A DNA stretch of 63,911 bases, the filler included, from a bacterium (GTDB lineage Bacteria > JALSQH01): NCBI GenBank assembly GCA_026985515.1. It is 6 parts of 6 records of this genome, joined end to end, with 100 filler letters (N's around TTAATTAATTAA, not from the genome) between each part and the next. Parts side by side here need not be neighbours in the genome. Positions count along the whole stretch, not along the records: positions 1 to 18,017 come from JALSQH010000037.1; 5 more parts are not named here. One strand, written 5' to 3'. This document shows, piece after piece, positions 1 to 16,988 of the stretch. Numbering within the stretch: the stretch's first letter is position 1; each line of letters opens with the position of its first letter. A program made the position numbers and the translations under genes. Under the pieces are notes generated by a model. It was not told the origin of the DNA. It saw nothing but the letters and a program-made list of their open reading frames with translations, and did no database searches.

Positions 1-77
1 AGTACACAGCAAAATATGGAGGTTATGTGGCAGCAGAGAGATTGAAACGATATGTTAAAAGATTAATGGAAAAATGA
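1..77 (+). CDS. 3' end of an upstream ORF (partial, product unknown)
   Basis: Open frame YTAKYGGYVAAERLKRYVKRLMEK* whose TGA overlaps the ATG at 74 (ATGA coupling). Confidence 0.5.
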   Translation, partial: YTAKYGGYVAAERLKRYVKRLMEK

Positions 78-1219
78 AGGTCCTCTTTTTCACAACTTCA
101 TATCCTCTCTCAGAGAATGACCCATTCCCGGGAGGGATATTTATCCACAAACTTGCCCTTCACCTGCAGAAAAGAGGGATAAAGGTTACCGTTGTTGCCC
201 CTCATGTAAGAGATGTACCCGACAACTACTTTATTGAAGGCATCGAAGTTATAAGAGTGAAATACTTCTTCAAAAAGATGGAAAACCTCTCAACTTTTCC
301 CGGAGGAATTCCCGGTCTGCTGAAAAGGGGCAGTCCCTTACTTTTCACGCTTCCCTTTCTCATGGGGGCAGGTACCTACAAAATATTCACCCTTGCAGAG
401 GAGTATGACCTTCTCCATGTTCACTGGCTATTCAATCTTTACGCGGCGATTCCCTTCAAATTAAAAGTGAAAAAACCGGTTTTAGTTACTGTTCACGGAA
501 GTGACTTCAATCTTTTTGAAAAACTTTCACCTGCCCGCATACTCATGAGATACTGTGACGCAATAGTAACCGTAAACACCACACAGGAAAGAAAACTGAA
601 GAAAAAATTTCCCCATGTGTATCACATTCCCAATGGTGTGGAAGATAACTTCTCACCTCTACCATCTGGCATCACAACCATTGGTGGTACAGGAAGTTTC
701 TCAAAAAATAAAAACTTCAAAACCCTGGCAAAGGCTCTTCTGCTGCTCAGAAAAGAGGGAATTAAATTCAGGGCAATTTTTATTGGTGACGGAGAGGAGA
801 GGGAAGAAATTGAGAGAATAGTGCAGCCATTGAGGGAAGACATCCAGATAACAGGATATATTCCCAACAGAGAAGTTTTAAACATGTTGAAAAAACTTCA
901 CATATTTGTCCTCCCCTCCTTCTCAGAAGGTCGCTCCATTGCTCTTTTAGAGGCAATGGCAACAGGCAGGGCGATTGTGGCATCAGATATTCCCCAGAAC
1001 AGAGAAATAATAAGAGATGGTGTAAATGGACTTCTTTTTGACCCGAATTCACCGGAGGATCTCAAAAATAAATTGAAATCCCTCATTGAAAACAGGGAAA
1101 GGTTGATTTTTCTGGCAAAAAACGCCTATACTACTATAAAGGAAATGAAACTCTCATGGGAAGAGGCTGCCAGAAAATATGCTGAACTCTACGAAAAACT
1201 TTTAAAAGGAGGGAGTTGA
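74..1219 (+). CDS. Glycosyltransferase family 4 (GT-B)
   Basis: N-terminal GG..F...LA..L..RG..VTV, HVHW, TVHGSD, C-terminal PSFSEGRSIALLEAMATG..IVASD motif. Confidence 0.93.
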   Translation: MKVLFFTTSYPLSENDPFPGGIFIHKLALHLQKRGIKVTVVAPHVRDVPDNYFIEGIEVIRVKYFFKKMENLSTFPGGIPGLLKRGSPLLFTLPFLMGAGTYKIFTLAEEYDLLHVHWLFNLYAAIPFKLKVKKPVLVTVHGSDFNLFEKLSPARILMRYCDAIVTVNTTQERKLKKKFPHVYHIPNGVEDNFSPLPSGITTIGGTGSFSKNKNFKTLAKALLLLRKEGIKFRAIFIGDGEEREEIERIVQPLREDIQITGYIPNREVLNMLKKLHIFVLPSFSEGRSIALLEAMATGRAIVASDIPQNREIIRDGVNGLLFDPNSPEDLKNKLKSLIENRERLIFLAKNAYTTIKEMKLSWEEAARKYAELYEKLLKGGS

Positions 1220-2640
1220 TGCCTGAGAAGAAAAGGCTGTTTATCAACGGGGAGTGGAGGGAAACAGAGGAATATGAGGAAAACATCAACCCCTACAATG
1301 GAGAACTCATAGGGTACATTCCCATTGCATCTGAGCGTGATGTAGAGGATGCCATTCAGGCCGCAGTTAAAGCCTTTGAGAAGACCAGGTGGCTCTCAGC
1401 CTACGATAAATCAAAAATTCTGGAGAGAATCAGGGATGGCATAGAAAAAAGGAAAAAAGAACTCACAGAAATGATAGTGAGAGAGTCGGGCAAACCATAC
1501 CAGTATGCCCTCGGTGAAGTAAATAGAGCAGTAGTAACCTTCACATTTGCAGCAGAAGAGGCAAAGAGAATTGGTGGAGAAGTTTTCCCTGTGGATATTC
1601 AGGAGAACACAAAGAATTATCGTGCATTTTACAAAAGATTTCCTCTGGGACCAATACTCGCCATAACCCCCTACAACTTTCCTCTGAATCTGGTAGCTCA
1701 TAAAGTTGCTCCAGCCATTGCAGCAGGAAACACAGTGGTGCTGAAACCACCACCACAGGCGCCCTTCACCTCACTGATCCTCGCTGAAATTATTGAAGAA
1801 GCGGGAGCTCCTCCGGGAATGGTAAATGTGGTTCCAACCACAGTGGAAAGGGCAGAGAAGATGGTAAGGGACGAAAGATTTAAACTCCTCTCCTTCACAG
1901 GAAGTCCAAGAGTTGGCTGGTACCTGAAGAGTATTGCGGGAAAGAAAAAGGTTCTGCTTGAACTGGGAGGAAATGCTGGAGCAGTGGTGGATGAAAGTGC
2001 TGACCTGGATTTTGCTGCATGGAGACTCGCAATTGGAGGTTTTGCCAATGCGGGGCAGGTATGCATAGCTGTGCAGAGAATCTATGTTCACTCCAGGATT
2101 TATGACCAGTTTCTGGAAAAATTTAAGAGAGAGGTGGAAAAACTGAAAGTGGGAGACCCAATGGATCCAGACACAGTTTTTGGACCCCTCATTGATGAAA
2201 AATCTGCAGACAAGGTGGAGAGGTGGATCAAAGATGCCATTGACAATGGAGCCATAATTATTACAGGAGCAAAGAGACATGGAAACATCATTGAGGCAAC
2301 CATAATTTCAGATGTGAGAAAGGATCTTCCTGTCTACTGCGAGGAGGTCTTTGGACCCGTTGTCATAACAGAACCCTTTGACAGATTTGAAGAGGCAATA
2401 GATAAGGTCAACGATTCTCAGTACGGATTACAGGCGGGAGTTTTCACCAATAATCTCAAAAACACCTTCTACGCCATTGAACACCTCGATGTTGGAGGAG
2501 TAATAATCAACGATTATCCAACATTCCGCGTGGACAACATGCCATATGGAGGCATAAAGGATTCAGGGCTGGGGAGGGAAGGCTTAAAATACGCCATTGA
2601 AGAGATGACAGAAATTAAAAACGTTGTTTTCAGATTTTAG
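1219..2640 (+). CDS. NAD(P)-dependent aldehyde dehydrogenase
   Basis: ITPYNFP, FTGS, LELGGN, AGQVC (catalytic Cys), EEVFGP, PYGGIKDSG motifs. Confidence 0.95.
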   Translation: MPEKKRLFINGEWRETEEYEENINPYNGELIGYIPIASERDVEDAIQAAVKAFEKTRWLSAYDKSKILERIRDGIEKRKKELTEMIVRESGKPYQYALGEVNRAVVTFTFAAEEAKRIGGEVFPVDIQENTKNYRAFYKRFPLGPILAITPYNFPLNLVAHKVAPAIAAGNTVVLKPPPQAPFTSLILAEIIEEAGAPPGMVNVVPTTVERAEKMVRDERFKLLSFTGSPRVGWYLKSIAGKKKVLLELGGNAGAVVDESADLDFAAWRLAIGGFANAGQVCIAVQRIYVHSRIYDQFLEKFKREVEKLKVGDPMDPDTVFGPLIDEKSADKVERWIKDAIDNGAIIITGAKRHGNIIEATIISDVRKDLPVYCEEVFGPVVITEPFDRFEEAIDKVNDSQYGLQAGVFTNNLKNTFYAIEHLDVGGVIINDYPTFRVDNMPYGGIKDSGLGREGLKYAIEEMTEIKNVVFRF

Positions 2641-2711
2641 AACAAAACATGAGAATAGGATAATTAAGAGTATAACTTTTCTTGTCAAGATTATGATGAA
2701 TCTTCAAGAGA

Positions 2712-4064
2712 TCATTGAGGAGAAGGGAGAGAAAATTGGAAAAGTGGAATAACCTGCTTTTCTCCTCCTGCCGGTATTTTTAGATTTAACTCGCTCCCGG
2801 TGAGTATGGGGGAAAAGCTCTGAAAATCATCATTAAGATAGAAGAGTTTCCCTATTTTTACCTCACACTCATCGCCAGAGAGATTTATCAGTGCTATGTT
2901 TTTAATAGTCAGAGAACTGACCGGAGCTGGCAATTTTAAAACAACTCTCTTCCAGCCTTTGAAATTCCAGGCGAGGGAAGAAGTAGCATTGGAAATTTCC
3001 TCACCACTGTCAAGAAGAACCCGCATGCCAATCTGACAATCGTCATCATCAATGTACAGGTCCATGTAGAGATAATAGTTAAGAGGGGCAAGGGAGTTAA
3101 CCTGATCAGTGAGATCCTCAGTTGAAATCTTTTTCTCCCTCTCCATCTCCCACTCCATAATAAGATAGCTCCAGGGAAGCTGATCAAGGTAATCCTCCCT
3201 TGTGTGAAGGGAGAGGTCTGGTAAAATCAGAGGAGCAAACAAAAGCTGACCACTCTGATCCTCAACCTTTCCCTCAGCTACAAGGCCATGATCTGATGGG
3301 GCAACGGAAAGAAGGGGATGACCAAGATAATTTTCACCTTTAAATGGAGTGTCTTTGGTTTCATTATCCCTCTTCCACATTTCGCCACTCTCAAGGTCCA
3401 CAGTGAAAGCGTTTTCAATATCGGCAGTTCTCCCCCAGGCATACATAAGATAACCGGGTACCAGTCCGGTGCCACCATCCTCATTGGAGTAGTAAAGAAC
3501 ATAGATCAGTTTTGAACCATCCCTTCTGCACACCCAGAAAAGGGGAAGATCAGAGAGTGAATTGTAGGGAACGCTTCTTCCATTAACCGAGAGGCTTTTT
3601 GCAGAGTATCCCAGAAGATATGGATAATGCTCCAGACACTCTTCAGGAACTGAGGAAATCCTTTCAAGCCGAACCTTCTCAAGGGTTACCTTTCCCTTTT
3701 CTGCTGGACTCTTATCCACTGAATATTTAAGGGTGACCTGAAACTGCCCCTTCTCAAGCCTCCCCACAAATAGCCTGTATGTAAAATGCGGGTTCCAGAG
3801 CACAAGATCCCCAAGCCAGTTTTCAAGGGAATCGTAGGCATCAATAACCACGGAACTTTCCTCTCTGTCCCATCTGAATCCCTTTCCTTTAACTGAGAGC
3901 GTCAAATAATACCATCCCGTCTCCGTAACAGGAAGAGAAAATGTTACCTGCGGAAAGGAGGAGGAGAGGACAACTTTCTCTTCTTCCTCCTTCCCCTTCT
4001 CCTTACAGGAAAAAATCAAAATCCCTGAGAAAACCAAAAGCAACAGAGATAAATACCTTCTCAT
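2712..4064 (-). CDS. Lipoprotein of unknown function
   Basis: Signal peptide with lipobox IFSC; 450-aa ORF overlapping the stop of the upstream gene. Confidence 0.75.
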   Translation of the reverse strand: MRRYLSLLLLVFSGILIFSCKEKGKEEEEKVVLSSSFPQVTFSLPVTETGWYYLTLSVKGKGFRWDREESSVVIDAYDSLENWLGDLVLWNPHFTYRLFVGRLEKGQFQVTLKYSVDKSPAEKGKVTLEKVRLERISSVPEECLEHYPYLLGYSAKSLSVNGRSVPYNSLSDLPLFWVCRRDGSKLIYVLYYSNEDGGTGLVPGYLMYAWGRTADIENAFTVDLESGEMWKRDNETKDTPFKGENYLGHPLLSVAPSDHGLVAEGKVEDQSGQLLFAPLILPDLSLHTREDYLDQLPWSYLIMEWEMEREKKISTEDLTDQVNSLAPLNYYLYMDLYIDDDDCQIGMRVLLDSGEEISNATSSLAWNFKGWKRVVLKLPAPVSSLTIKNIALINLSGDECEVKIGKLFYLNDDFQSFSPILTGSELNLKIPAGGEKQVIPLFQFSLPSPQ

Positions 4065-5050
4065 TCCTCTTTAAGTTTCTTCAGCAGTTTTTTCAGAGCA
4101 TTTATGAGTGTTTCGTGAATTTCTTCCGTTTTCTTCCCTAAAACCATAGCAATTTCAAAAGGTTCAAGTTCTTCAAAAATGAAGAGTGTCAGTACTTTTC
4201 TCTCCATCGGAGAAAATCCTGGAAGAATTTTCTTTATTTTATCAACAATTTCCTCTTTCATCGCTGTGAGGTCAGGAACATCCTGAAGTTCTCCCTCCAC
4301 ATCAACAGAGGGAATGAGATCCTCCAATTTCAACCACGCATCAGGCTGATAAAAATCGAGTATCTCGCTTCCAAGATCAGAAACCTCCTCCTCTGGAGGC
4401 TCAAGAGGAACATCCTCATCAATGCTAACCTCTTCGCTTTTCTCCTCTGAAATTGTTTCAATCTCCTTCATCAGAGTTTCTGCCACTGCTTTGTACAGCA
4501 ACTTCTTGTTAATATTGGCACTCTTTACGAGACCCTCTTCAACAGCTCTCTCAATGGCTTCATCAACTACATCTTCAAAGTCAACAAGTTTCAGTGATTC
4601 CCAGTCATGGTAGAGATGAGCTGCTGCCATCCTTCTGGCAAATGAAATCAACTCTGGCCTTAACTTTGCAATGGCACTCTGAATTTCAGGGGTTAACTTT
4701 CTTGTAAGAAAAGCTATTTTCTCTTCTTTTTCAATTCTGTGGTTATCAATAATCTTTTCTTTCCTCCTCTTCACCTCCCTTATTAAGGCCTTGAAAAGGC
4801 CATCCATTGCATGGGCAAGCTGTGAATGGGAATTGCTCACAGTAAGATCAAGATCCTCTGGTACATGAAGGTATCCCTTAAGGAGAAACTCCTTAGTTCT
4901 GTTTGAGCGATCTATCTCCAGCCTGAGGGATGGGTTGTGGCTGGAAAATTTTCCAAGAACTCTCTCAAGTTTTTCAACTTTTCTCTTCAGAATCTTTTCC
5001 TCTCTGTTGCTCAGAACAACATCCTCTTTTTTTACGATCTGGAGTTCCAT
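4061..5050 (-). CDS. HPF/RaiA-like N-terminal domain fused to a sigma70-like C-terminal region (region-4 HTH)
   Basis: N-term K.EKLER.L...L.LEI...GYLHVP...V....QLAHAMDGLFKALIREVKR.KEK fits HPF/S30AE; C-term FSPMERKVLTLFIFEELEPFEIAMVLG......TL..AL.KL fits sigma region 4. Confidence 0.7.
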   Translation of the reverse strand: MELQIVKKEDVVLSNREEKILKRKVEKLERVLGKFSSHNPSLRLEIDRSNRTKEFLLKGYLHVPEDLDLTVSNSHSQLAHAMDGLFKALIREVKRRKEKIIDNHRIEKEEKIAFLTRKLTPEIQSAIAKLRPELISFARRMAAAHLYHDWESLKLVDFEDVVDEAIERAVEEGLVKSANINKKLLYKAVAETLMKEIETISEEKSEEVSIDEDVPLEPPEEEVSDLGSEILDFYQPDAWLKLEDLIPSVDVEGELQDVPDLTAMKEEIVDKIKKILPGFSPMERKVLTLFIFEELEPFEIAMVLGKKTEEIHETLINALKKLLKKLKEE

Positions 5051-5065
5051 ACTACCTCCCGTTTT

Positions 5066-5896
5066 TTATTTGTTGTTTCCTTTTTTATATGGTGCCGGAA
5101 TGTATTCCACAGCAGGCTGATGCCTTACCGGCTGAGGGAAAAGAGCCATTAGCTGATACACTTCCCTCGGAATCTCGCTCTTCACATTCAGTCCCAATTC
5201 CACAGCCCTTTCATAGGTAATTGGAAAATCATGGGTGAAATATCCCTCAGAAAGTAACCTGGCCACTTCTTTTGCCCTCTCATCTTCCATTTTATCCTTG
5301 AGCAACCAGTAAACAAAATCATAAACCTGCTTTATTGCCTTTTTTGACATATCAATGAGGACAAGGGTTCTATCTTCTATTTTATCATACGGTTTCATTT
5401 CTGGAATTTTTACCAGGCTTGCCGCAGGAAGTTCCCCAAGTTGCGGATCCACCGGCCCAAGAACTGCATTTGGATCAAGGTAGATTTCATCAGCTGCAAG
5501 AGCTATCAATGTTCCTCCACTCATTGCGTAGTGGGGTACAAAGACTCTCACGGGACCTTTGTGATTTTTAATTGCCCTTGCAATCTGCTCGGCGGCAAGG
5601 ACAAGGCCACCGGGGGTGTGAAGAATAAGATCAATGGGCATATCGTCAGGAGTGAGCCTGAAGGCTCTCAAAACTTCTTCAGAATCATTCACATCAATGT
5701 ATCTGAAAACGGGGAAACCAAGGAAACTCATGGTTTCCTGACGATGAATGAGAGTTATTACCCTCGATTTCCTCTTCTTTTCTATTTTGTGAATAAGATT
5801 CAACCTCGCACTCTCAAGCATCTGCTGTTTGATCCACGGCAGCAGAGCTATAAGCATTAAAAACAACCAGAAAATACTGTTAATGGTATGGTCCAT
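5066..5896 (-). CDS. ClpP/SppA-class serine protease, SDH_sah (DUF114) family, with N-terminal membrane anchor
   Basis: IHRQET, DLILHTPGG, PHYAMSGGTLIALAAD, GPVDPQ, THDFPI motifs. Confidence 0.9.
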   Translation of the reverse strand: MDHTINSIFWLFLMLIALLPWIKQQMLESARLNLIHKIEKKRKSRVITLIHRQETMSFLGFPVFRYIDVNDSEEVLRAFRLTPDDMPIDLILHTPGGLVLAAEQIARAIKNHKGPVRVFVPHYAMSGGTLIALAADEIYLDPNAVLGPVDPQLGELPAASLVKIPEMKPYDKIEDRTLVLIDMSKKAIKQVYDFVYWLLKDKMEDERAKEVARLLSEGYFTHDFPITYERAVELGLNVKSEIPREVYQLMALFPQPVRHQPAVEYIPAPYKKGNNK

Positions 5897-5912
5897 AACC
5901 AACCTCCTTTTA

Positions 5913-6617
5913 CTACCAGGGCCTCATCACATGGATGATGCTTACCTCTTCTTTTTTAAAAACCCTCATTATCAATCCCCATACCACCCCGAAGGAAAAT
6001 CCACCTATGTGTGCCCACCAAGCCACTCCTCCCTGATGAGGTAGAAAGGCCATTGTTGTTCCATTTATGAACTGAATGAAAAACCAGAGAAACAGGTATA
6101 GAAAGGCAGGCAAGTAAACGATGTCTATGAAAATAAAAATTACGAGAAGAGTCAATACCCTCGCATAGGGGTAGAAAACCATATAGGCACCCAGTACTCC
6201 CGCTATGGCTCCACTGGCGCCGATGAGAGGAATGCTTGAATAAGGGTTAAATATGTACTGGAGAAAGACGGCAAAAAAACCTGAAGCTATGTAGAAAAAA
6301 AGATAGTGTAGATGACCAAGCCTGTCCTCCACATTGTCGCCAAAAATGTAGAGAAACCACATGTTACCTATTATGTGAAACCACCCTCCGTGGAGAAACA
6401 TCGATGTCAAAACTGGCAGAAACAGAGTTTCAAGGGGGAACCCCCTTTCAAGTCCAACTGTGAATCTGATCGGAACAAAACCATAGTGGGCTATGAACAA
6501 CTGCAGATTTCTCCCGAGGGAAAGTTCAAAGAAAAAGACAAGAAAGTTCAGAACAATGAGGGAATAATTGACAATGGGAAATCTGCGTGAGGGAATATCA
6601 TCCTTCAGCGGGAACAC
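5913..6617 (-). CDS. Rhomboid family intramembrane serine protease
   Basis: MFPLKDDIP start, SMFLHGGWFHIIGNM, GASG (catalytic Ser), AHIGG (catalytic His). Confidence 0.93.
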   Translation of the reverse strand: MFPLKDDIPSRRFPIVNYSLIVLNFLVFFFELSLGRNLQLFIAHYGFVPIRFTVGLERGFPLETLFLPVLTSMFLHGGWFHIIGNMWFLYIFGDNVEDRLGHLHYLFFYIASGFFAVFLQYIFNPYSSIPLIGASGAIAGVLGAYMVFYPYARVLTLLVIFIFIDIVYLPAFLYLFLWFFIQFINGTTMAFLPHQGGVAWWAHIGGFSFGVVWGLIMRVFKKEEVSIIHVMRPW

Positions 6618-6628
6618 CTTCTATCTCC

Positions 6629-7777
6629 TTATACGAACCTGAGCAGGGCAGCCATTCCACCCTTCTCTTCAATCTTCGTTTTCAGGTAATTAACATGCTT
6701 AACCCTGGAATTGTTTATGATGGCTAAATCGTAGGTCTTTGTGAGTATATTCTCCACCTTCTCCATTCTGCTACCACAGTAGGGACACTCTTCCCCTTCC
6801 AGGGTGATGTAATAGCAGGATGGACAGGCAACACCCTCCCTGCTGAAGTAGGGTGAAACAAGCAAAATATCCACCTTACCCTCATACAGGGCATCCAGGG
6901 TTTCCTTTACACCGGTTACACCTTTTCCATTTTTACCAATTTCTTCTTCAAGCTTTTTGAACAATTCCTCTTCCTCTTCCTTCTTTATTTCCTTTTCTAT
7001 TTCCTCCATCCTCTTAAGGATATCGCCTCTTGTTGCATTCATGTCCAGATTGGTAACTTCCCTGATAACCTTTGATTTAACCTCATAGATAAGGTTCTCT
7101 TTAAACTGGGGAAGTAGTTCCTGGTGGGAGGCAAGAATAACATAGTCAATATCCTCCTCCTCTATGATCTGTCTTGCTATGAGCATGATGTTCTTAAAAT
7201 GCCGGTAAATATGGTACATCACGTGCCTCTGAATTCTCTTTTCCACTGCACCAAAATCGTTGTAATCTTCCAGTTTGTGCATTCTCTCTCTCAGATTCAT
7301 GTGTTCCCTGATCTTTTTCATAAAGTATTCCACAAACCTCACCCTCTCCCTGTCAAAAAGAATGAGCAGATACCTTTTGAAGTTAGCCATGACCTCATCT
7401 AAAAGGAGATAGTTGGGTAAATCTGAAACAACAATGAAATCGTTTCTTGGTAGTTCCTCCGGTATTTTGAAAAGTGTGTCAAGGTTGTTGGCACTGCTGT
7501 AAAACCACACAACAGACTCCACTCCAGAGAGATCAATGGAATTCAATTCTCTCTCCATGTAATCAAGGTCAGAATAGATTCTCTTCAATTCATTTCTCGT
7601 GTATCTGGCCTCTTCCCTCAGCTTTTCCTTTGTCTCCTTGACGAGATCCTTCAGTTTGATCTTCCACTCCTTTGCCTTGAACCAGACTGGATTGACAGAG
7701 AGATAAAGATTGATTATTGGATGTTCACTCTTGATAAACTCCCTCAGTGCCCGGATTTCTCTGTTCTGAACAATCAT
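6629..7777 (-). CDS. Bacterial aeRF1-like release factor homologue (baeRF10-like) with Zn ribbon
   Basis: INLYLSV N-domain, YLLILFDRERVRF middle domain, C-terminal GVTGVKETLDALYEGKVDILLV, CPSC..CPYCG, GGMAALLRF; no GGQ. Confidence 0.8.
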   Translation of the reverse strand: MIVQNREIRALREFIKSEHPIINLYLSVNPVWFKAKEWKIKLKDLVKETKEKLREEARYTRNELKRIYSDLDYMERELNSIDLSGVESVVWFYSSANNLDTLFKIPEELPRNDFIVVSDLPNYLLLDEVMANFKRYLLILFDRERVRFVEYFMKKIREHMNLRERMHKLEDYNDFGAVEKRIQRHVMYHIYRHFKNIMLIARQIIEEEDIDYVILASHQELLPQFKENLIYEVKSKVIREVTNLDMNATRGDILKRMEEIEKEIKKEEEEELFKKLEEEIGKNGKGVTGVKETLDALYEGKVDILLVSPYFSREGVACPSCYYITLEGEECPYCGSRMEKVENILTKTYDLAIINNSRVKHVNYLKTKIEEKGGMAALLRFV

Positions 7778-7854
7778 TTCAACCTCCTCACTTGTTTTCG
7801 CTTTTCCGCTATCTATAATATAACATAATCAGCCTTTTTGAAAAAGGAAGTACC

Positions 7855-8223
7855 ATGGAACAAAAAGCAAGGCTCCACGCATCAAGGCAATGGGTGGGAG
7901 AACCGGTTTACATCGGGGATGGATATGCAGAGGTGGAATTCTTCACATTCTCCGAAATGGCAGTTGAAGTTGATGGAACTGTAAACAACGGCTTCATATT
8001 TGGCCTTGGAGAATTTGCTGCGGCTATTGCCGTCAATATTGAAAATGTCTTCATAGAAAGGGCTGAAGTAGAGTTTTTAAAACCGGTTAGAATTGGTGAA
8101 AGGGTGGAAGCCACAGGGAGGGTGGTGGAGAAAAAGGGGGAGCGCTACATAGTGGAAGTGGAGGCAAAAAGTTTTGAAGGGGTCGTGATGAGGGGAAGAT
8201 TCTGGTGCAGGGTGGAGGGATAG
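7855..8223 (+). CDS. Hotdog-fold thioesterase (PaaI-like)
   Basis: EMAVE.DGTVNNGFIFGL..FAA..AVN, VEFLKPVRIG pattern. Confidence 0.75.
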   Translation: MEQKARLHASRQWVGEPVYIGDGYAEVEFFTFSEMAVEVDGTVNNGFIFGLGEFAAAIAVNIENVFIERAEVEFLKPVRIGERVEATGRVVEKKGERYIVEVEAKSFEGVVMRGRFWCRVEG

Positions 8224-8268
8224 GTTACTTGTTTTAAAAAGATTTGCAGATTATACTAAGTAAAAACG

Positions 8269-9522
8269 ATGGACCATATCGTTAAAATTATCATCGGCGA
8301 TAGCCGTAAGATGTTAGAAATTGGAGATAATACCGTTCAATTAGTTGTTACTTCCCCTCCTTACTGGTCCATAAAAAATTATGGCATCAAAAATCAAATT
8401 GGATATGGCCAGACGCTCCATGAATATCTAAAAGACCTCTACAGAGTCTGGAAAGAAGTCTACAGGGTCCTGGAACCAGGAAGAAGGATGGTTATAAACA
8501 TAGGAGACCAGTTTGCAAGATCCATAGTGTACGGGAGATACAAAATTATACCTCTTCACGCAGAAATAATCGCCCAATGTGAAGACATCGGTTTTGATTA
8601 CATGGGCTCCATAATATGGCAGAAAAAAACAACAATGAATACCACTGGTGGAGCAAATGTGATGGGTTCCTATCCATATCCTCCAAATGGAATGATTGAG
8701 ATAGATTACGAACATATTCTGATATTCAAGAAACCGGGAAAGACAAAAAAAATACCAAAAAACATCAAAGAGCAATCCAGACTAACTAAAGAGGAATGGA
8801 AAGAATATTTTTACGGACACTGGAATTTTGGAGGTGCGAAACAGATAGATCATCAGGCAATGTTCCCGGACGAATTACCCAAAAGGATAATTAAGATGTT
8901 CAGTTTTGTTGGAGAAACTATACTTGATCCTTTTTTAGGAAGTGGTACCACTGCAACAGTTGCCATGGAGTTGGGGAGGAAGGTAATCGGATACGAAATT
9001 AACGAAGACTTCCTGACAATAATCAAAAGTAAAATCAAATTTGACGATTCTACAATATTCAAAAATGAAATTGAAATTATCAAAAGAAATAAACCTATTG
9101 AGCCTGAGCCTATTTTTTACACGCCAAGAATAAAAGATGCGAGTCCGATAATTCAACCGGACAAGCTGAGATTTGGTAAAAACAAGCTTTATAAGGTCAT
9201 GGAAATACTTGAAGATGGAAAATTAAAATTGGATACAGGACTTGTTGTAAAACTTAGAGGGATAATTATAAGGGATAAAGATGCCACACTATCCTACATG
9301 AGAAAATATTTACTTAAAAAGCAGGTTTATTTAAAATTTGACAAAGGCTATATTGCAAGTAAAGAGGGTGTGGAAGCATATATTTATCTTAAGAACAGAA
9401 TATTTGTGAACAAGTACCTCATCAAAAACGGCTTAGCTACAGTAGATAGACAACTTGATTTTGATATGAAGGAGAAATTTATTGAAATTGAGGAAACATC
9501 TCATCAAAAGATTAAAAACTAA
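8269..9522 (+). CDS. Type II DNA methyltransferase (beta class, probably m4C) with C-terminal SNase/thermonuclease-like domain
   Basis: VTSPPY motif IV before HQAMFP and LDPFLGSGTT motif I; C-terminal ~110 aa with VKLRGI, AYIYL.N..FVN..LIK.GLA SNase-like pattern. Confidence 0.88.
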   Translation: MDHIVKIIIGDSRKMLEIGDNTVQLVVTSPPYWSIKNYGIKNQIGYGQTLHEYLKDLYRVWKEVYRVLEPGRRMVINIGDQFARSIVYGRYKIIPLHAEIIAQCEDIGFDYMGSIIWQKKTTMNTTGGANVMGSYPYPPNGMIEIDYEHILIFKKPGKTKKIPKNIKEQSRLTKEEWKEYFYGHWNFGGAKQIDHQAMFPDELPKRIIKMFSFVGETILDPFLGSGTTATVAMELGRKVIGYEINEDFLTIIKSKIKFDDSTIFKNEIEIIKRNKPIEPEPIFYTPRIKDASPIIQPDKLRFGKNKLYKVMEILEDGKLKLDTGLVVKLRGIIIRDKDATLSYMRKYLLKKQVYLKFDKGYIASKEGVEAYIYLKNRIFVNKYLIKNGLATVDRQLDFDMKEKFIEIEETSHQKIKN

Positions 9523-9554
9523 TTAAAGGAAACATCAGGTCACGGAGATCTTAA

Positions 9555-10160
9555 ATGGAATTCAAAATTACAATTAAGGAAATCAGAAAGCTAATGGAAA
9601 TAGATACTCCCGATTTTCCAAAATATGCAACTCAGATAATAAATCTTGCCAACCAGAATGCGCAAGCGACAAGACCCAGGGTTGTCGGGCAGATGAGTGA
9701 ACTGATAAGAGAATTTACTGGTAAGACCCTAAAAGAATGGGAAGATTGGTATCTGAAAAGGTATCCAGATTCAATAGACATAGCCACTAAGAAGATACTG
9801 GATATGATAAATAATTTCAAAGATGTTATTAACCAGATAGACGAAGAAATGATAAAACAATGGGTCAGAGACCTGGTAATAGTAAAAACTTTTATCGGTT
9901 TGCGGTTTCAGGAAGCTATTTTAAAGAAAATTGCTGAAAAATTTAATACAGAATACAGACTTGCAACATCTGAAGAAGAAAGTAAAGGAATTGATGGGTA
10001 TATTGGGAATATTCCTATCAGCCTGAAACCTATTTCATATCAATCCAAAAAAATGTTAACTGAATTGATAGATGTTGACATTGTTTATTATGCCAAACAG
10101 AAAGATGGGCTAAAAATTATGATCCCGGATGAATTAGAAAATAAGTTAAAACAATTGTGA
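9555..10160 (+). CDS. MjaI-family type II restriction endonuclease
   Basis: TRPRVVGQMSELI, EWEDWY, KTFIG, EESKGIDGYIG..PISLKP (PD-D/ExK-like); directly downstream of the MTase. Confidence 0.82.
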   Translation: MEFKITIKEIRKLMEIDTPDFPKYATQIINLANQNAQATRPRVVGQMSELIREFTGKTLKEWEDWYLKRYPDSIDIATKKILDMINNFKDVINQIDEEMIKQWVRDLVIVKTFIGLRFQEAILKKIAEKFNTEYRLATSEEESKGIDGYIGNIPISLKPISYQSKKMLTELIDVDIVYYAKQKDGLKIMIPDELENKLKQL

Positions 10161-10229
10161 TTAAAAATAAAAAGAATACAAAAAATATTTACTCTGGAAA
10201 TAAATTCAAGAAGCTTCTAAAAAATCTTC

Positions 10230-12635
10230 TTACCCACCATACACCACCAGATCCCACCATCTCTCAACGGCGGGGATAAATTCAAATCTGTTGCCTCTGT
10301 CGTCGCTGATTTCAATGGACGAATCTGCTTTGCTCTTCACCCTTATCTTCACCCCCTGGGGCAGGGTATAGAAACAGGGTGGTGAGTTCCCCTCACAGGA
10401 TTTAAGATACTGTGAGTTCAGTTTCAGAGTGGAAAGATCCAGCGCATTTACAACTGAATTTACGAACTCATTTCCCTCATAATCCTTCCATTTAACGGTA
10501 TGCTCTCCGGGGAAAACCCATACTTCCCGCCAGTTATTCCTTCCTTCCAGCGTCACCACATTCTCAGACTCCTGAAAGGCGGAAATTGTATCAATGTCCC
10601 CCGCTATCAGTTCAAGAATTGCACCATCCCTCACAAAAACAGGTATCCTCTCAAGGGGGGCATTTGCCTCTATCCATTCACCCCTTGAATTGACTGACCA
10701 TTTTTCCCAGAAATCATACCACTTCCCCCGGGGCAGATAGAGAATCCTGTGTCGTGCCCCCCTTTCAATGACCGGTGCAACAAGTAAAAATGGGCCGAGC
10801 ATATACTGATAAGGCATATCATAGAGGGAGGCATCCTCGGGAAACTCCATGAGCATGTGTCTTATGAGGGGGATACCCTTCTTTCCCTCTGTTACAGCTT
10901 CACTGTAAAGATAGGGGAATAGTCTCTGATGCCAGATTGCATAGAATCTGTACCAGTTGAGGGTATACTGATCCCGGTAAAAATTCCAGTTTTTAAATGC
11001 AAAATATCCGTGATGTGTTCTCATAACAGGGGAGAAAGCACCAAATTCTGTCCATCTGATGAAAAGTTCCCTGTCTGATGGTGGGTTACCGAGGGACATA
11101 TACCCGGCAATGTCGGACCCGTACATCAGCATTCCACTCCAGCTCAGATTAACCGCCACTGCAATGGCAGTTGGTAAACCATCATCAACTGCAAAATCTG
11201 TGCTCTGGTCTCCCGGCCAGTAAACAGGGGTTAAAGCCTGATCCCCAATATAGCCTGATCTGGTAAAATAGACAAAGTTTCTTTCATCACTGTACTTTTC
11301 CATCACTTCAAGGTTCAGCCTGTGCCAGAGGAGGGGGTAGAGGTTGTGAAATTTTTTCCCCTCTCCTTCCGCCACCCTGCTGTCATATGGGAGCCACTCA
11401 CCATAATCAGCCATCCAGCCATCAACACCCATTTCAATTGCCTTTTTCATCTTATTCTCCGCCCACTCCCATGCCGCAGGATTGGTGAGATCAAGGATGG
11501 AACCCCAATCCAGGGTCGGAATCAACATCATGTAGGGTGAGCCATCTTCATGCTTTATGAGATAATCATGCGGGATCTCATTCCAGATACGGGACTTTGA
11601 ATCAACAAATGAGTTAAAATAGACCAGGAAGTGAAATCCCATTCTGTGGAGTTCAGCTACCATTGTCTCAAAATGGGGATAGAGATCCCTGCCCAGATCC
11701 CAGTTGTAGGTAAATGAGTAACTACCATCCTTTCCCCTTTTCACCCCACCACCCCAATCCTCCGTCCAGATAACTGCTGAAGGTATGTGATTTTCCCTTA
11801 TGATTCTCGCCACCTCAAGAACCCTGTCCTCCCCACCAACTGCATCATTCCAGGGAGAAAAGTACCACTTCTGGGGCAGGAGAGGCTTGCCTGTGAGATC
11901 TGTGTAGATCTCCACGCTCCTTTTGGGGGAATCAGCAATCAAAACATATATTTTCAGCTTAGAAGTATCACCCTCCATGCTCCATTGATCCTCCCTGTTG
12001 TGGCAGAGATCAAACTCGGTCAGGTATGGAGTATCCACCAGGAAGCCAAAACCTGCAGGATTGTAGAAATATGGAAGCGGATAGTAAGAAGAATGCCTGT
12101 TGCCAACAACCATCCAGAGTGGATTTACATCTGATTCAAGCAACTTCCTCAATCCTTCTTCAGATGTCCAGACGGGTATATACTCTCCTTTCTGGTCACT
12201 CTTTATAGTCTGGGCTCCAAAACCCAGAAAATGGTCATTACTCCTGCAACTGAAGATCAACTTCAGGGCGTTTCCATTTCCAGAAGCCTCAATTTTCACA
12301 ATATTTTTTCCTGAGAGGGAGAAATTCATCTTTACACCGTTGTTCCACTCAACAACTCTCCCGGAAACTCTTTTTATTTTTTCACCTACCCTTTCCCATA
12401 TATATTTTTTCTCAAACTTCGTACTTCCACCAAAAAAATATGTTTTCAATTCTCTCAAAGAAGAGACTGTACCTTTAATTTCAAAGATCTCCTTTCCTGC
12501 GGAGTAAAGCACAACTGAATTATCAGTGACATAGAGGTATGTTCCTCCACCAAGGGATACTGTTTTGTTCATTCCTGATGGAACACAGGCAAAAAGAAAA
12601 AGGAAAAGAAAGATAATAACGGCTCTCCCTTTCAT
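10230..12635 (-). CDS. Glycoside hydrolase family 31 lipoprotein (YihQ-like clade)
   Basis: Lipobox LFAC; GWMADYGEWLP nucleophile motif, WPGDQ, GSDIAGY, RWTEFGAFSPVMRTHHG, QYMLG..LLVAPV. Confidence 0.9.
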   Translation of the reverse strand: MKGRAVIIFLFLFLFACVPSGMNKTVSLGGGTYLYVTDNSVVLYSAGKEIFEIKGTVSSLRELKTYFFGGSTKFEKKYIWERVGEKIKRVSGRVVEWNNGVKMNFSLSGKNIVKIEASGNGNALKLIFSCRSNDHFLGFGAQTIKSDQKGEYIPVWTSEEGLRKLLESDVNPLWMVVGNRHSSYYPLPYFYNPAGFGFLVDTPYLTEFDLCHNREDQWSMEGDTSKLKIYVLIADSPKRSVEIYTDLTGKPLLPQKWYFSPWNDAVGGEDRVLEVARIIRENHIPSAVIWTEDWGGGVKRGKDGSYSFTYNWDLGRDLYPHFETMVAELHRMGFHFLVYFNSFVDSKSRIWNEIPHDYLIKHEDGSPYMMLIPTLDWGSILDLTNPAAWEWAENKMKKAIEMGVDGWMADYGEWLPYDSRVAEGEGKKFHNLYPLLWHRLNLEVMEKYSDERNFVYFTRSGYIGDQALTPVYWPGDQSTDFAVDDGLPTAIAVAVNLSWSGMLMYGSDIAGYMSLGNPPSDRELFIRWTEFGAFSPVMRTHHGYFAFKNWNFYRDQYTLNWYRFYAIWHQRLFPYLYSEAVTEGKKGIPLIRHMLMEFPEDASLYDMPYQYMLGPFLLVAPVIERGARHRILYLPRGKWYDFWEKWSVNSRGEWIEANAPLERIPVFVRDGAILELIAGDIDTISAFQESENVVTLEGRNNWREVWVFPGEHTVKWKDYEGNEFVNSVVNALDLSTLKLNSQYLKSCEGNSPPCFYTLPQGVKIRVKSKADSSIEISDDRGNRFEFIPAVERWWDLVVYGG

Positions 12636-13432
12636 TCTCCACCACCCGGCTGAATTTTCTCCTGGAGCCAGTCCCCGATGAAGTTAAATGCCATCACAGT
12701 TAACATTATCATAATTCCCGGAAAAATGGAAATATGGGGTGCCTCTCTCAGAAAATCTATGCCATCGCTCAGTATTCTTCCCCAGCTGGGAATATCCTGC
12801 GGCCCGAGTCCCAGAAATGAAAGGGAAGACTCGGCAAGTATCGTCCCTGCCATTCCAAAGGTTGCCTGCACTATCACCGGTGGAAGAGTTTCAGGAATGA
12901 TGTGAATATAGAGGATTCTCCACAGGGGCAAACCTTCAGCAATTGCCGCCTGAACAAATTCTCTCTCTCTGATAGATAGGACCTGTCCCCTCACAAGTCT
13001 GGCATATCCCACCCATCCCATTGCAGAGAGGGCAATAATGATATTTTTCATCCCGGGACCAAGGAAAGCTGCGAGGGCTATGGCCAGGAGAATTCCCGGA
13101 AAGGCAAGAAGAATATCTATTAATCTCATAATGAGTTCATCAACGATTCCACCCACATAGCCGGAAATACCACCAATCAGGATCCCTGCAATAAAAGATA
13201 TGGCAACGGCAGTTGTGGAAATGGTGAGGGAGACCCTGGCACCATAGGCAACCATTGTGAAAATATCCCTGCCAAGTTTGTCCTGTCCCATGGGATGGGC
13301 AAGGGAGGGACCCCTTAATCCCTGATCAAGGTGTATTTCATAGGGGGAATATGGTGAGAGTAGTGGACCAAAAACTGCAAACAGAATCATGAGAAGCACA
13401 ATCACCACACCGGTTATAAACAGTTTCCTCAT
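12632..13432 (-). CDS. dppC: Peptide/nickel ABC transporter permease (DppC/OppC family)
   Basis: HPMGQDKLGRD, GARVSL, EFVQAAIAEG EAA loop, ESSLSFLGLG. Confidence 0.9.
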   Translation of the reverse strand: MRKLFITGVVIVLLMILFAVFGPLLSPYSPYEIHLDQGLRGPSLAHPMGQDKLGRDIFTMVAYGARVSLTISTTAVAISFIAGILIGGISGYVGGIVDELIMRLIDILLAFPGILLAIALAAFLGPGMKNIIIALSAMGWVGYARLVRGQVLSIREREFVQAAIAEGLPLWRILYIHIIPETLPPVIVQATFGMAGTILAESSLSFLGLGPQDIPSWGRILSDGIDFLREAPHISIFPGIMIMLTVMAFNFIGDWLQEKIQPGGGE

Positions 13433-14349
13433 TTTTCCAGTCTTACTCTCGGATCAATGATTGTGTAGGTTATATCCACAAGGGTATTTACAATCACATA
13501 TGTGAGTGCAATGACAAGGACCGTCCCCTGCACCAGGGGATAATCTCTGGTATTTATGGCATCAATGAGCAACCTCCCTATGCCTGGCCAGCTGAATATT
13601 GTTTCAGTTATAATTGCTCCTGAGAGAAGGGCACCAAATTGAAGTCCCATAATTGTAACAACAGGGATCATGGCGTTTCTCAGGGCATGTTTCACAATAA
13701 CCCGAAACTCAGGGAGACCCTTGGCTCTTGCTGTTGTAATGTAAGCTTCCTTAAGCACTCCTGTAAGGGAGCTTCTCGTTATTCTGGTGAGAATGGCAGC
13801 CAAAGCAGTTCCCAGAGTTATGGATGGAAGGACATAACTCGCAAATCCACTCTTCCCTGATACGGGAAACCATCCCAATTTAAGAGAAAAGAAGAGAATG
13901 AGAACCGGGCCCAGGAAAAAATTGGGGATGGAGACACCCAGAAGGGAAATAACCGCTGTCAAATTATCCCAGAAGGAGAATTGCTTTACCGCAGCATAAA
14001 TCCCGGGAGGAATTGCTATTAAAATTGCCACAATCATTGAAACTAAGGCGAGGGTGAAGGTGGCGGGAAATCTCTCCTCAATGATTTTCATTACCTTTTC
14101 TTTGTAGAAGATGGATCTACCAAGATCAAGATGAACTACCCTGTTGAGGTAATCAACATATTGACGATAAAGGGGCTTATCAAGACCAAGCTGATGACGA
14201 AGAGCAACTCTGTCAGCCTGGACAGCATTTTCCCCCAGCATAATTTCAACCGGGTCCCCCGGTGTGAGGTGAATCAGAAAAAAAACGAGGGTTACAACTC
14301 CCCAGATTGTGGGGATGAGAAGAAGAACCCTTCTTACAAGAAATCTCAT
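13429..14349 (-). CDS. dppB: Peptide/nickel ABC transporter permease (DppB/OppB family)
   Basis: PGDP, LGLDKP, YITTARAKGL, HALRNA, ETIFSWPGIG, RDYP, DPRV. Confidence 0.92.
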   Translation of the reverse strand: MRFLVRRVLLLIPTIWGVVTLVFFLIHLTPGDPVEIMLGENAVQADRVALRHQLGLDKPLYRQYVDYLNRVVHLDLGRSIFYKEKVMKIIEERFPATFTLALVSMIVAILIAIPPGIYAAVKQFSFWDNLTAVISLLGVSIPNFFLGPVLILFFSLKLGWFPVSGKSGFASYVLPSITLGTALAAILTRITRSSLTGVLKEAYITTARAKGLPEFRVIVKHALRNAMIPVVTIMGLQFGALLSGAIITETIFSWPGIGRLLIDAINTRDYPLVQGTVLVIALTYVIVNTLVDITYTIIDPRVRLEK

Positions 14350-14789
14350 TCTACCCCTATTATCTCGATTCCTTCCCTTTCAAATAAAGCAGAGGTTACG
14401 CCTCTCCCGTCTTCAAGATTTCCATCTATGTAGACCCTGTTTACCCCACAGGATGGACTCTTCTCTTTCATATAGGCTCTCTTAATACCTGCAAGTCTGG
14501 CCAGTTTTAACACCTCCTCCGCCCCTCTAATAAAGTTCTCAGTCACATCTTCCCCAGTTTCAATCACCACAACCCTTGCCCTCCCTTCCAGGACAGATTT
14601 TCCCTCTCCTCCGGTGAAATAAGCGGGTTTCCTCGGTGTGGGCAGTCCACCTAACTGTTCAGGACAGACTACTATCCCGCCCTCCCTCTGGAAAATTTTC
14701 ACAATCTCTTCCCTCATTGAGTTTTTTCCGTCGTAGCGACAGTTAATACCAAGGAGACAGGCAGAAAAGAGGTTCATTCTACCATTCAA
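14346..14789 (-). CDS. DUF523 / 2-thiouracil desulfurase (TudS/YbbK-like) Fe-S protein
   Basis: SACLLGINCRYDG, CPEQLGGLPTPR, KEKSPSCG. Confidence 0.9.
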   Translation of the reverse strand: MNGRMNLFSACLLGINCRYDGKNSMREEIVKIFQREGGIVVCPEQLGGLPTPRKPAYFTGGEGKSVLEGRARVVVIETGEDVTENFIRGAEEVLKLARLAGIKRAYMKEKSPSCGVNRVYIDGNLEDGRGVTSALFEREGIEIIGVE

Positions 14790-15345
14790 TCGTGAATTTC
14801 AAGTAGTTGCCTTTTTCATCTTTGCCTATTTCATATTCAACATTTCTCACGGGGGTATTCACAAGGTAAAAAACCTCATTAATCCAGCCCACTGATCTCT
14901 CTGCAAGTATTTTTGTAAAATCATTCTCACCAATGGGAGTCCCTCTCAAAATGTAGACAATGGTATTGTCACCGGGCTGATATATTTCAGGTTTTATTCC
15001 TCCAAAGAGCATATCTGCAAGAAGGGGAACAAGTCCTTTTACTGCATCAACAGGGGTTGTTAACTTTTTCTTAAAGACTGACGAGTACAGTTCCATGGAT
15101 GCTTCAGCAGTTGACTTTCCAATATCCTGCCATAGCTTTCCGTCAGTATCAAAAAGATCTCTTAAAACTTTGTGCAATTGAATGTAGATCTCCGCATCGT
15201 AGTAACCACCGGGGAGAATGATTTTTTTTAGCTGGGCAGAAATCTTTTCAGGGAGATTCTCAAGCACCTTTTCCCACCCATCATTACCAAAGCGGTTTTT
15301 AATGTAGTCCACAGTTCCGGTTAGAAGAACACCTTTTATCTTCAT
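14779..15345 (-). CDS. Hypothetical protein, DUF2378/Myxococcales-type (H-NOX/V4R-like fold)
   Basis: KIKG.L......YI..RFG.DGW.KVL..LP...IL...YY pattern recalled from that family. Confidence 0.55.
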   Translation of the reverse strand: MKIKGVLLTGTVDYIKNRFGNDGWEKVLENLPEKISAQLKKIILPGGYYDAEIYIQLHKVLRDLFDTDGKLWQDIGKSTAEASMELYSSVFKKKLTTPVDAVKGLVPLLADMLFGGIKPEIYQPGDNTIVYILRGTPIGENDFTKILAERSVGWINEVFYLVNTPVRNVEYEIGKDEKGNYLKFTIEW

Positions 15346-15444
15346 TTATCCTGCTCCTTTCCAGGTTATATTTCAATTTACCACGGGGGGAAAGAAAAGG
15401 CAAGAGGAGAGATCATTAAGGGTACATTCAACCAAAGGCTGAGA

Positions 15445-15548
15445 TAGATATGCTGATCCTTGTTACTCCAGACTGCCTGAGTTTATCCCTGTTTTCCTCT
15501 GAGTTTTTGAAGGATTGCTTCGTGGGTCATGGTGGGGGAGCCCCTCCA
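15445..15548 (-). pseudogene. Degenerate duplicate of the 5' end of the MNT antitoxin gene at 16535-16831
   Basis: ATGACCCACGAAGCAATCCTTCAAAAACTCAGAGGAAAACAGGGATAAACTCAGGCAG closely matches ATGACCCGCGAAGAAATCCTTCAAAAACTCAGGGAAAGCAGAGATAAACTCAGGCAG, with a frameshift. Confidence 0.7.
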
Positions 15549-15555
15549 TGTAGGT

Positions 15556-16256: not shown

Positions 16257-16367
16257 AGTGCCATTCCCTCCCTCTAACTATATAAGTTTATCCCTGTTTT
16301 CTCATGTTTTTTCAGGATTATCAGCGGTATAAAGTTTATTATTCCTCATAATCAATCCCTCATTCTC

Positions 16368-16831: not shown

Positions 16832-16988
16832 AGCGGGTTTGAGCCTCCTTCATCAAAAAGGGTTTACTATCCTTTTATTTTTAGATTAGCACAGAAGGGC
16901 GGAGGGTTCAATTATGATGGGTAATAACAGATAACAGCAGTACAAGGCTTACCATTGTGTAAAGGCCCATAGCCACTCGGAGATCCTC

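Follow-up and report, generated by a model that had tools for sequence, protein, structure and literature searches.

What brings a release-factor-like protein, two serine proteases and a fusion of a hibernation factor with a sigma factor together in one transcription unit, and do the proteases act on the ribosome factors encoded beside them? This question is raised by a locus from a vent bacterium (assembly GCA_026985515.1), found in a stretch of 63,911 nucleotides, filler included, that was analysed as a whole and is referred to below as the window. The host contig (C37) occupies window positions 1-18017 and belongs to a genome of 2.36 Mb in 268 contigs with an estimated completeness of 97.6% (G000). 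A search of sequencing runs for this DNA listed three with DNA reads, from two studies and one of them possibly the source, and none with RNA reads. An initial annotation of this DNA had described four co-oriented genes with short gaps, encoding a baeRF10 protein, a rhomboid, a ClpP-like protease and an HPF-sigma fusion, and had proposed that the proteases control dormancy or clear stalled membrane-protein products. From our analysis, the locus is probably a single co-expressed five-gene stress operon that combines translation shutdown with membrane proteostasis by joining three modules that are independent elsewhere. The features are the following, where ECF stands for extracytoplasmic function.

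7814..7844, minus strand: promoter region with sigma-70-like -35/extended -10 and a 19-nt box conserved in the sister genus (promoter scan and comparison with the sister genus, G001)
6629..7777, minus strand: baeRF_family10 protein, 382 residues, three-domain, aeRF1/Balon-like, with a Zn ribbon in the C-terminal domain (Pfam PF18854)
5913..6617, minus strand: rhomboid intramembrane serine protease, 234 residues, first gene of the rhomboid+SDH cassette (Pfam Rhomboid)
5066..5902, minus strand: SDH-type ClpP-fold serine protease, 278 residues, with one N-terminal membrane helix (Pfam SDH_protease, NCBIfam Clp_like_SDH)
4061..5050, minus strand: HPF::ECF-sigma chimera, 329 residues (TIGR02937, S30AE at the family level, and structural model)
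2712..4064, minus strand: lipoprotein-like protein, 450 residues, last gene of the operon (signal-like segment followed by Cys; no family)
7855-8223, plus strand: thioesterase-fold gene, divergent from the operon (Pfam)

The five minus-strand genes run from 7777 to 2712 and are tightly coupled. The coordinates, orientation and spacing given initially for the first four were right, with intergenic gaps of 11, 10 and 15 nt and a GGAG/GGAGG Shine-Dalgarno sequence in every gap. The unit is longer by a fifth gene, the one for the lipoprotein, whose start overlaps the stop of the chimera gene by 4 nt. The 77-nt spacer between the thioesterase gene and the baeRF10 gene carries a sigma-70-like -35/extended -10 element, found in the promoter scan as TTTTCA-16-TATATT with a preceding TG, 7844 to 7817, in a region that overall did not score above shuffles. 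The box CTGATTATGTTAT(A)TTATA in this spacer is also present upstream of the baeRF gene in the sister genus. An ECF-type autoregulatory promoter upstream of the operon was considered and rejected, as no ECF-type motif was seen and the conserved box is sigma-70-like.

The first gene encodes the sole copy of this protein in the genome, matching Pfam baeRF_family10 (PF18854) with 60.9 bits at a cut-off of 27.1. As had been noted initially, the aeRF1-like protein has no GGQ and carries a Zn ribbon: neither GGQ nor NIKS was found by string search and alignment, and the ribbon (CxxC...CPYC) lies in the C-terminal Pelota-like domain, with CxxC at residues 318 and 331 and with C318, C321 and C331 invariant in alignments of 14 and of 10 sequences. 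The best match of the family profile to a solved structure was Balon MSMEG_1130 over its full length (E 4.7e-31), followed by archaeal aRF1 (E 9e-27). The AF2 model (pLDDT 87) was placed by Foldseek on ribosome-bound Balon with TM values of 0.70/0.73 for 8v9j_z and 0.69/0.71 for 8rdw_B, as against about 0.5 for aRF1/eRF1. The window protein thus has in common with Balon, MSMEG_1130 and Rv2629 the three-domain aeRF1 fold and the lack of GGQ and NIKS. This likeness is one of overall fold, and the protein falls outside the curated Balon equivalogs, far under the NCBIfam cut-offs of both MSMEG_1130_fam_RHF (40.4 vs 480 bits) and Rv2629_fam_RHF (35.3 vs 320 bits). The features described for Balon are an HP motif, a bL27 trap/lasso loop and an EF-Tu-binding beta-hairpin (PMC10901736); whereas Balon is described with this beta-hairpin insertion, the window protein has the Zn ribbon in its C-terminal domain.

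The hibernation role of Balon and Rv2629, and the linkage of baeRF genes to HPF, both relied upon initially, are in print (PMC10901736, PMC6514570), the latter source also bringing forward the notion of non-catalytic A-site blockers. Balon genes are reported to sit in stress operons together with RaiA, Hsp20, HdeD and alternative sigma-70 factors, and a solved structure has RaiA and Balon bound to the ribosome simultaneously (PMC10901736). The window baeRF10 gene likewise shares its operon with an HPF-type protein and a sigma factor. Judging from the model, baeRF10 is most likely a Balon-type hibernation factor that would occupy the ribosomal A site. Family 10 was singled out by Burroughs and Aravind as the one retaining a conserved glutamine, with possible peptidyl-tRNA hydrolysis (PMC6514570). 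Most of the family-10 relatives that we aligned carry GGW..SQ; the window clade has NDF/Y-GAVE instead, the GG being lost and the glutamine column holding Glu in all four members. Peptide release by baeRF10 of the window clade is unlikely because this loop is lost and its Gln is replaced by Glu.

The fourth gene encodes the chimera. It matches the sigma70-ECF model TIGR02937 with 47.5 bits (cut-off 42.9) over residues 126-326, and its orthologue in the sister genus matches S30AE with 34.6 bits. A search of 1.84 billion representatives returned 138 relatives at E <= 1e-3, many of which align end to end; among the 37 that were aligned, 32 match S30AE, 33 match Sigma70_r4_2 and 22 match PF22233. 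The family profile matches solved HPFs (E 1e-14 to 1e-9) and solved ECF sigmas (E 7e-19, positions 162-328) with separate halves. The AlphaFold model (pLDDT 82.8) has an HPF fold at residues 1-117, sigma2 at 121-206, a disordered segment at 211-259 and sigma4 at 259-328, and its N-terminal domain superposes on HPF structures with Foldseek TM values of 0.80-0.87 and a root mean square deviation of 2.0-2.4 A. The HPF assignment is secure at the family level, given the S30AE matches of the relatives, the profile matches and the superposition of the model. The chimera lacks the C-terminal dimerisation domain of long HPF, residues 121-328 being sigma2, linker and sigma4, and no membrane segment was found in it.

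The 22 matches to PF22233 had raised the possibility of a PhyR-like sigma mimic acting as an anti-anti-sigma. This 50-position model lands on the helix-turn-helix of sigma4, and the mimic was dropped because TIGR02937 and the solved ECF sigmas match across sigma2-sigma4. Judged by sequence, the sigma2-sigma4 part seems to have what an ECF sigma factor would need in order to function, and it may couple stress-gene expression to hibernation. By analogy with known HPFs, the N-terminal domain most likely blocks the decoding channel of the 30S subunit. The HPF part is basic (isoelectric point 9.65) and the linker acidic (4.05), with 17 D/E in 49 residues. Within this disordered linker, where pLDDT is below 50, lies the motif that the family conserves best, [DE]EIL.FYQPDE.L.LED (residues ~228-247, DNA about 4310-4370). 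A conserved, acidic and disordered linker between sigma2 and sigma4 is unusual for ECF sigmas.

Fusions of this kind, and their adjacency to Balon, are already known from a 2025 preprint (10.1101/2025.11.04.686544), where HPF-SigE chimeras, termed 'non-canonical HPF isoforms', are reported on plasmids such as pEc78 and often next to Balon. The chimeras described there consist of an HPF N-terminal domain and an ECF-type sigma that replaces the dimerisation domain, are plasmid-borne and Balon-adjacent, and the family of the window protein is alike. No characterisation of the combination was known initially; the fusion and its Balon adjacency are in print, and the rhomboid+SDH link and the FYQPD linker motif are not mentioned in the chimera section of the preprint. 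The words 'ribosom', 'hibernation' and 'rhomboid' do not occur in the ECF reclassification paper.

Is the chimera the only HPF of its host? According to the preprint, every genome analysed there that has a chimera has a canonical HPF as well (10.1101/2025.11.04.686544). The host phylum consists of two species genomes only, that of the window and one from another genus (G001, 80% complete), and S30AE searches of both find the chimera only; as both are fragmented metagenome-assembled genomes, canonical HPF is to be called not found rather than absent. In all four of the other chimera-bearing genomes that were checked, a separate HPF frame of 178-209 residues is present. Unlike the genomes described in the preprint, those of the host phylum thus show no canonical HPF beside the chimera (2 genomes), and a phylum of this kind would run counter to the claim of constant company by canonical HPF. 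Since no HPF other than the chimera was found in it, the host phylum offers a natural test of whether chimeras hibernate ribosomes. We infer the hibernation role that the initial annotation gave to the two ribosome-type proteins; it is plausible in view of the Balon superposition (TM 0.70-0.73) and of the chimera being the only S30AE protein in both genomes.

Short stand-alone HPF-like frames of 116-123 residues were seen in the phylum of the Nitrospiraceae genome G002 (G013, G022, G031, G040, G056, G063, G069, G075, G081 and G087). The chimera profile matches them over its first 115 positions with E about 1e-25 to 1e-30, and several of the matches cross in-frame stops. These frames may be the free-standing relatives from which the HPF domain of the chimera derives.

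The second and third genes encode the proteases. The rhomboid protein matches Pfam Rhomboid with E 1e-34, has hydrophobic segments, and its catalytic set is intact, H81, N85, S135 (GASGA) and H203 being invariant in 24 sequences. The SDH protein, a single copy in the genome, matches Pfam SDH_protease (PF01972; E 1e-126, 421.9 bits) and NCBIfam Clp_like_SDH (NF047768; 424 bits, cut-off 250), with weak matches to NfeD1b_N, SppA and Peptidase_S49. In it S128 (AMSGG), H95, H124 and H224 are invariant in 24 sequences, together with several His/Asp residues. A hydrophobic segment lies at residues 2-25, and the stretch rich in K/R that follows this helix suggests, by the positive-inside rule, that the catalytic domain is cytoplasmic.

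To see how these two genes travel, a metagenome scan anchored on SDH was made, from which 80 listed loci with 57-64% identity to SDH were considered. A rhomboid homologue is present at 61 of them; at 59 it is on the same strand in one cluster, its start lying a median of 734 nt upstream of the SDH start, and at two listed loci it is just downstream of SDH. Of the 69 listed loci for which 800 nt or more upstream were available, 51 have the rhomboid under a strict adjacency rule. No other neighbour occurs at more than nine of the 80, the minor ones being Hsp20 (9/80), DUF308/HdeD (7/80), DegP-like peptidase (6/80) and MerR (6/80). The rhomboid and SDH genes are a widespread, self-contained two-gene cassette. 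The chimera is present at one listed locus (L145: GH26-type hydrolase, chimera, rhomboid, SDH) and baeRF at none of the 80. A further candidate for chimera, rhomboid and SDH in one place, L153, was rejected, as it has an ordinary ECF sigma with a zf-HC2 anti-sigma.

Rhomboid-mediated quality control of membrane proteins is known for GlpG/Rhom7 and for YqgP with FtsH, and SppA/NfeD-type proteins are membrane peptidases of the ClpP fold. The logic of 'cut, then degrade' is shared by the pair described here, a rhomboid with a complete active site and a membrane-anchored peptidase of the S49/ClpP fold, but the partner is FtsH for YqgP and an SDH-type peptidase here. Judging from their families, the two proteins most likely serve the quality control of membrane proteins, the rhomboid cutting within the membrane and the SDH peptidase degrading the resulting fragments. 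Prediction of a rhomboid+SDH complex from our own alignments gave a score of 0.00, which speaks neither for nor against binding. To our knowledge, the substrates and partners of bacterial rhomboids are largely unknown, and a fixed partner protease is a concrete lead. No description of the gene pair was found in the literature, as judged from search listings. Rhomboids reportedly take part in the quality control of orphan subunits (PMC7232013).

The lipoprotein has a signal-like hydrophobic segment at residues 2-22 followed by Cys, and no cytoplasmic domain; no Pfam or NCBIfam family was matched. It has nine sequence relatives and is retained downstream of the chimera in the sister genus. The structural look-alikes of its Atlas model (TM 0.71-0.77) are large clusters from Acidobacteriota and Actinomycetota, all of them unnamed; in one of these clusters the protein is joined to a response-regulator receiver domain. 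A role for the lipoprotein as an anti-sigma was considered and rejected, as it has no anti-sigma domain and only the signal-like segment. No anti-sigma domain was found in the operon proteins with Pfam and NCBIfam.

How far is the arrangement conserved? In the sister genus the order is divergent thioesterase, baeRF10, rhomboid, SDH, chimera and lipoprotein, over two overlapping contigs and at about 70% identity. The contigs overlap within the SDH gene, and the HPF-sigma gene of this genome contains a run of masked or unknown bases. The scans anchored on chimera, SDH and baeRF10 found the full quartet only in the host phylum. The initial annotation was to count as refuted if the four genes did not co-occur in other genomes, and for the full quartet outside the host phylum this is the case: the order is kept in the sister genus and pairs recur by way of the chimera, but no quartet was found outside the phylum, a Blastocatellia locus (L034) being a partial exception with three of the four genes. 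There the chimera adjoins baeRF10, followed by PGK-Usp, an M48 peptidase and a SpoIIE/GAF protein, and SDH lies about 2.2 kb beyond the other side of the chimera.

For baeRF10 the anchor scan covered 301 genomes of the phylum of G002. The protein scored over the cut-off in 64 of them, and the best 30 of these 64 loci were inspected over about 1.1 kb on each side. The chimera stands beside baeRF10 at one of these 30, in G002 itself, and a rhomboid or SDH at none; a full-length chimera is present in one of the 301 genomes. For the chimera, a degenerate DNA pattern for the linker motif gave at least 120 genome loci, and a family member is present at at least 112 (112 of the 120 listed), in at least nine phyla. 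Neighbours were counted at the 70 listed loci of at least 3 kb, and lineages were taken as 22 clusters at 50% identity. A rhomboid or SDH lies in the fetched flanks (within 8 kb) at 18 of the 70 and baeRF10 at three; by lineage among the listed loci these become two and one of 22, respectively. In a quick tree with SH-aLRT support, the chimera is linked to rhomboid or SDH in at least three separated clades (the window clade, L145, the alphaproteobacterial clade and the Blastocatellia locus) and to baeRF10 in two (the window clade and a Nitrospirota/Acidobacteriota clade). Examples of the latter link are L043 from Nitrospiraceae (chimera, baeRF10) and L058 from Nitrospira (YfdX, ClpB fragment, Hsp20, unknown, chimera, baeRF10). 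The recurring links between modules all run through the chimera, which is the hub, and each module is usually alone; ten chimera loci of Acidobacteriota, for example, have housekeeping neighbours (aminotransferase, SpoU methylase, S41 peptidase).

Alphaproteobacteria account for 25 of the 70 listed chimera loci, with the same layout in Aquamicrobium, Thioclava and Bosea: FtsH, a ClpB/ClpG-like AAA ATPase of 964 residues, chimera, DUF308/HdeD, an unknown gene, an NDUS4-like gene, rhomboid, SDH, thioredoxin 2 and an Na/H antiporter. The annotated stretch of a conjugative Ciceribacter plasmid reads FtsH, ClpG-like AAA ATPase, chimera, HdeD, rhomboid, SDH, TrxC and antiporter; the plasmid adds HtpX, a DegP-like peptidase, PsiE, three Hsp20 genes and MarR, and the set ends at a Tn3 transposase. 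Such a set of genes is that of the published tLST/LHR/TLPQC islands, for which a gene list and order are given that include orf11 between hdeD-GI and trx-GI (PMC8290217). A tblastn search of the plasmid collection with the chimera gave 95 records, including 24 from Klebsiella and 31 from Acinetobacter. On an E. coli IncHI1A plasmid the match is a 'hypothetical protein' of 381 residues between hdeD-GI and trx-GI of a canonical tLST (clpK, cls, ftsH, hsp20-GI, yfdX1/2, hdeD-GI, the protein in question, trx-GI, antiporter, ..., HtpX, DegP). By Pfam alone this protein gives a weak sigma4 match only; by hhalign it matches the chimera family with 99.85% probability (E 1.4e-30, 313 columns) and the FYQPD motif is retained. 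The name orf11 is given here by position in the published order (PMC8290217), not by annotation; according to the same source, no protein of known function reaches 30% identity to orf11. By profile and position, the chimera family includes orf11 of the tLST/LHR islands. So read, orf11 would put a ribosome-hibernation and transcription component inside a heat- and chlorine-tolerance island of clinical and industrial relevance.

The alphaproteobacterial islands, which are tLST-like, share the chimera, rhomboid and SDH with the window operon, and the operon looks like a minimal relative of such proteostasis islands. It differs from the tLST/LHR islands in that it is chromosomal with housekeeping surroundings and has baeRF10 and the lipoprotein in addition, and none of the hallmarks ClpK/ClpG, sHsp20, YfdX, HdeD, Trx, KefB, DegP and HtpX is present on the 18-kb contig. 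DUF308/HdeD (for example L041 8438-9085, L130 10251-10898 and L213 8325-8933) is directly downstream of the chimera in the alphaproteobacterial islands (26 of the 70 listed loci) and upstream of it in the E. coli tLST, with none on the window contig. This membrane protein could act as a partner of the chimera.

The reading that we consider probable, one operon for translation shutdown and membrane proteostasis, would work as follows. With baeRF10 in the A site and the HPF domain of the chimera in the 30S channel, ribosomes would be silenced by the two together, much as by RaiA and Balon, and the sigma half would add a transcriptional output. The rhomboid would cut membrane proteins, and the anchored SDH protease, facing the cytoplasm, would degrade the products. 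All of these proteins would be made together under heat or starvation stress at the vent, since one and the same stress would call for both translation shutdown and proteostasis. The proteases would not be there to process the ribosome factors.

Several observations weigh against this reading. The S30AE score of the window chimera itself is under the Pfam cut-off (18.1 vs 23.7 bits, or 22.1 in the genome search), so that of the family assignments proposed initially those to baeRF_family10, SDH and Rhomboid score above threshold, and HPF is confirmed at the family level. The 37 aligned chimera members match 10 families between them, none of which is Pfam Sigma70_r2, and the window protein does not match this model either; sigma activity is unproven for this reason. 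The conserved box upstream of the operon resembles a sigma-70 promoter of the housekeeping type rather than an ECF promoter. Of the SDH gene, the sister genus retains a remnant that encodes roughly 100 residues (L006 3386-3622; L005 2-199): its frame opens 10 nt past the rhomboid stop, at the equivalent of residue ~124, and ends early, so that the N-terminal ~123 residues, membrane helix included, and ~70 C-terminal ones are lost, while the upstream rhomboid is intact. Neither protease nor baeRF10 is present in the fetched DNA of 20 of the 22 chimera lineages, many of these loci being short. The alphaproteobacterial loci are one horizontally spread island, to judge from near-identical proteins across many genera, and count as one event. 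Fragmentation of the two genomes weakens the absence of canonical HPF in the host phylum. Finally, of 13 deletions made in E. coli MG1655 lacZ::LHR, seven reduced resistance to heat or chlorine; the deletion of orf11 was not one of these seven, and it left membrane-lipid oxidation unchanged (PMC8407380). From these reported deletions, orf11 is not needed for the known phenotypes of the island and is no obligatory activator there.

A first alternative is that the three modules are unrelated and merely juxtaposed in one transcription unit, co-travelling elsewhere as cargo of mobile stress islands. That each module is mostly found alone, with the quartet restricted to the host phylum, agrees with it, as do the unrelated neighbours of the operon in the window and the alphaproteobacterial cases on conjugative plasmids beside a Tn3 transposase. 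The tight translational coupling, kept across two genera at about 70% identity, is contrary to it, and the same pairs occur in distant clades in non-mobile contexts (L034, L043, L058, L145). The steady company of proteostasis genes likewise argues for a shared physiological theme, and we regard mere juxtaposition as unlikely.

A bolder possibility concerns the chimera itself, which could be a sigma factor gated by the ribosome: with the HPF domain held in the decoding channel of idle ribosomes, or excluded from translating ones, the amount of sigma free to bind RNA polymerase would directly report occupancy and no anti-sigma would be needed. We think this rather unlikely. If it were true, a proteostasis and hibernation regulon (the Balon-like factor, rhomboid+SDH and the tLST genes) would be switched on by ribosome occupancy, by a protein that would also be the only HPF of its host phylum, and the acidic FYQPD linker would be the switch, folding onto the basic HPF domain or threading RNA polymerase.

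Could the proteases instead regulate the chimera? Rhomboid and SDH would then activate or inactivate it, either through destruction of a membrane anti-sigma or by cutting the chimera, in the linker or, as with a pro-sigma, at the HPF/sigma junction. Removal of an N-terminal extension has a reported precedent in BldN/ECF121 (PMC7826278). The recurrence of the chimera with rhomboid or SDH in separated clades would fit, above all at L145, where nothing intervenes between the three genes, and the linker at 211-259 is disordered yet holds the most conserved motif of the family. With no anti-sigma encoded nearby, some other control of the chimera would be needed. Against this stand the lack of an anti-sigma domain in the operon to be destroyed and of a membrane segment in the chimera for a rhomboid to cleave. 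Moreover, the chimera is missing at 79 of the 80 listed rhomboid/SDH loci, most chimera lineages are without a nearby protease, and in the sister genus SDH is cut down and the chimera intact. Regulated proteolysis of this kind thus seems improbable, and a common stress operon remains the preferred reading.

The weakest explanation is the one put forward initially, in which proteases and ribosome factors form a mechanistic unit, be it a dormancy switch or a means of clearing nascent membrane proteins from stalled ribosomes; the gene order shared with the sister genus, the probably cytoplasmic catalytic domain of SDH and the peptidyl-hydrolase activity proposed to be kept by baeRF family 10 (PMC6514570) speak for it, but the window clade has lost the GGW..SQ loop (Gln to Glu), which makes peptide release unlikely, baeRF is at none of the 80 listed protease loci and proteases at none of the 30 best baeRF10 loci, and the SDH of the sister genus is degenerate, so that we hold it to be very improbable. 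Control of dormancy by proteases would matter more if true, but the data do not favour it: the cassette is with the chimera at one of the 80 listed loci, baeRF10 is without chimera or proteases at 29 of its 30 best loci, and the sister genus has cut down its SDH and kept the rest intact. The gene identities given in the initial annotation are right and its interpretation is partly supported; an action of the proteases on the ribosome factors is not supported.

On the host contig the operon is surrounded by unrelated genes, namely those for a glycosyltransferase, an aldehyde dehydrogenase, GH31, ABC permeases and a restriction-modification pair. Window positions 18018-63911 are off this contig (or N), and context beyond 18 kb is not readable as linkage. 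The restriction-modification pair at 8269-10160 consists of an N4/N6 DNA methylase (417 residues, with a weak SNase-like C-terminal match) and an MjaI-type endonuclease (201 residues), in a stretch with a G+C content of 33-35% compared with about 42-46% in the flanks. The pair looks like an insertion, since in the fetched part of the sister-genus genome the thioesterase gene is directly abutted there by a long open frame. Further along, a HEPN-domain protein of 150 residues (15556-16008) is encoded near a family-less open reading frame of 188 residues (14779-15345), and the two may be a toxin-antitoxin pair of the HEPN/MNT type.

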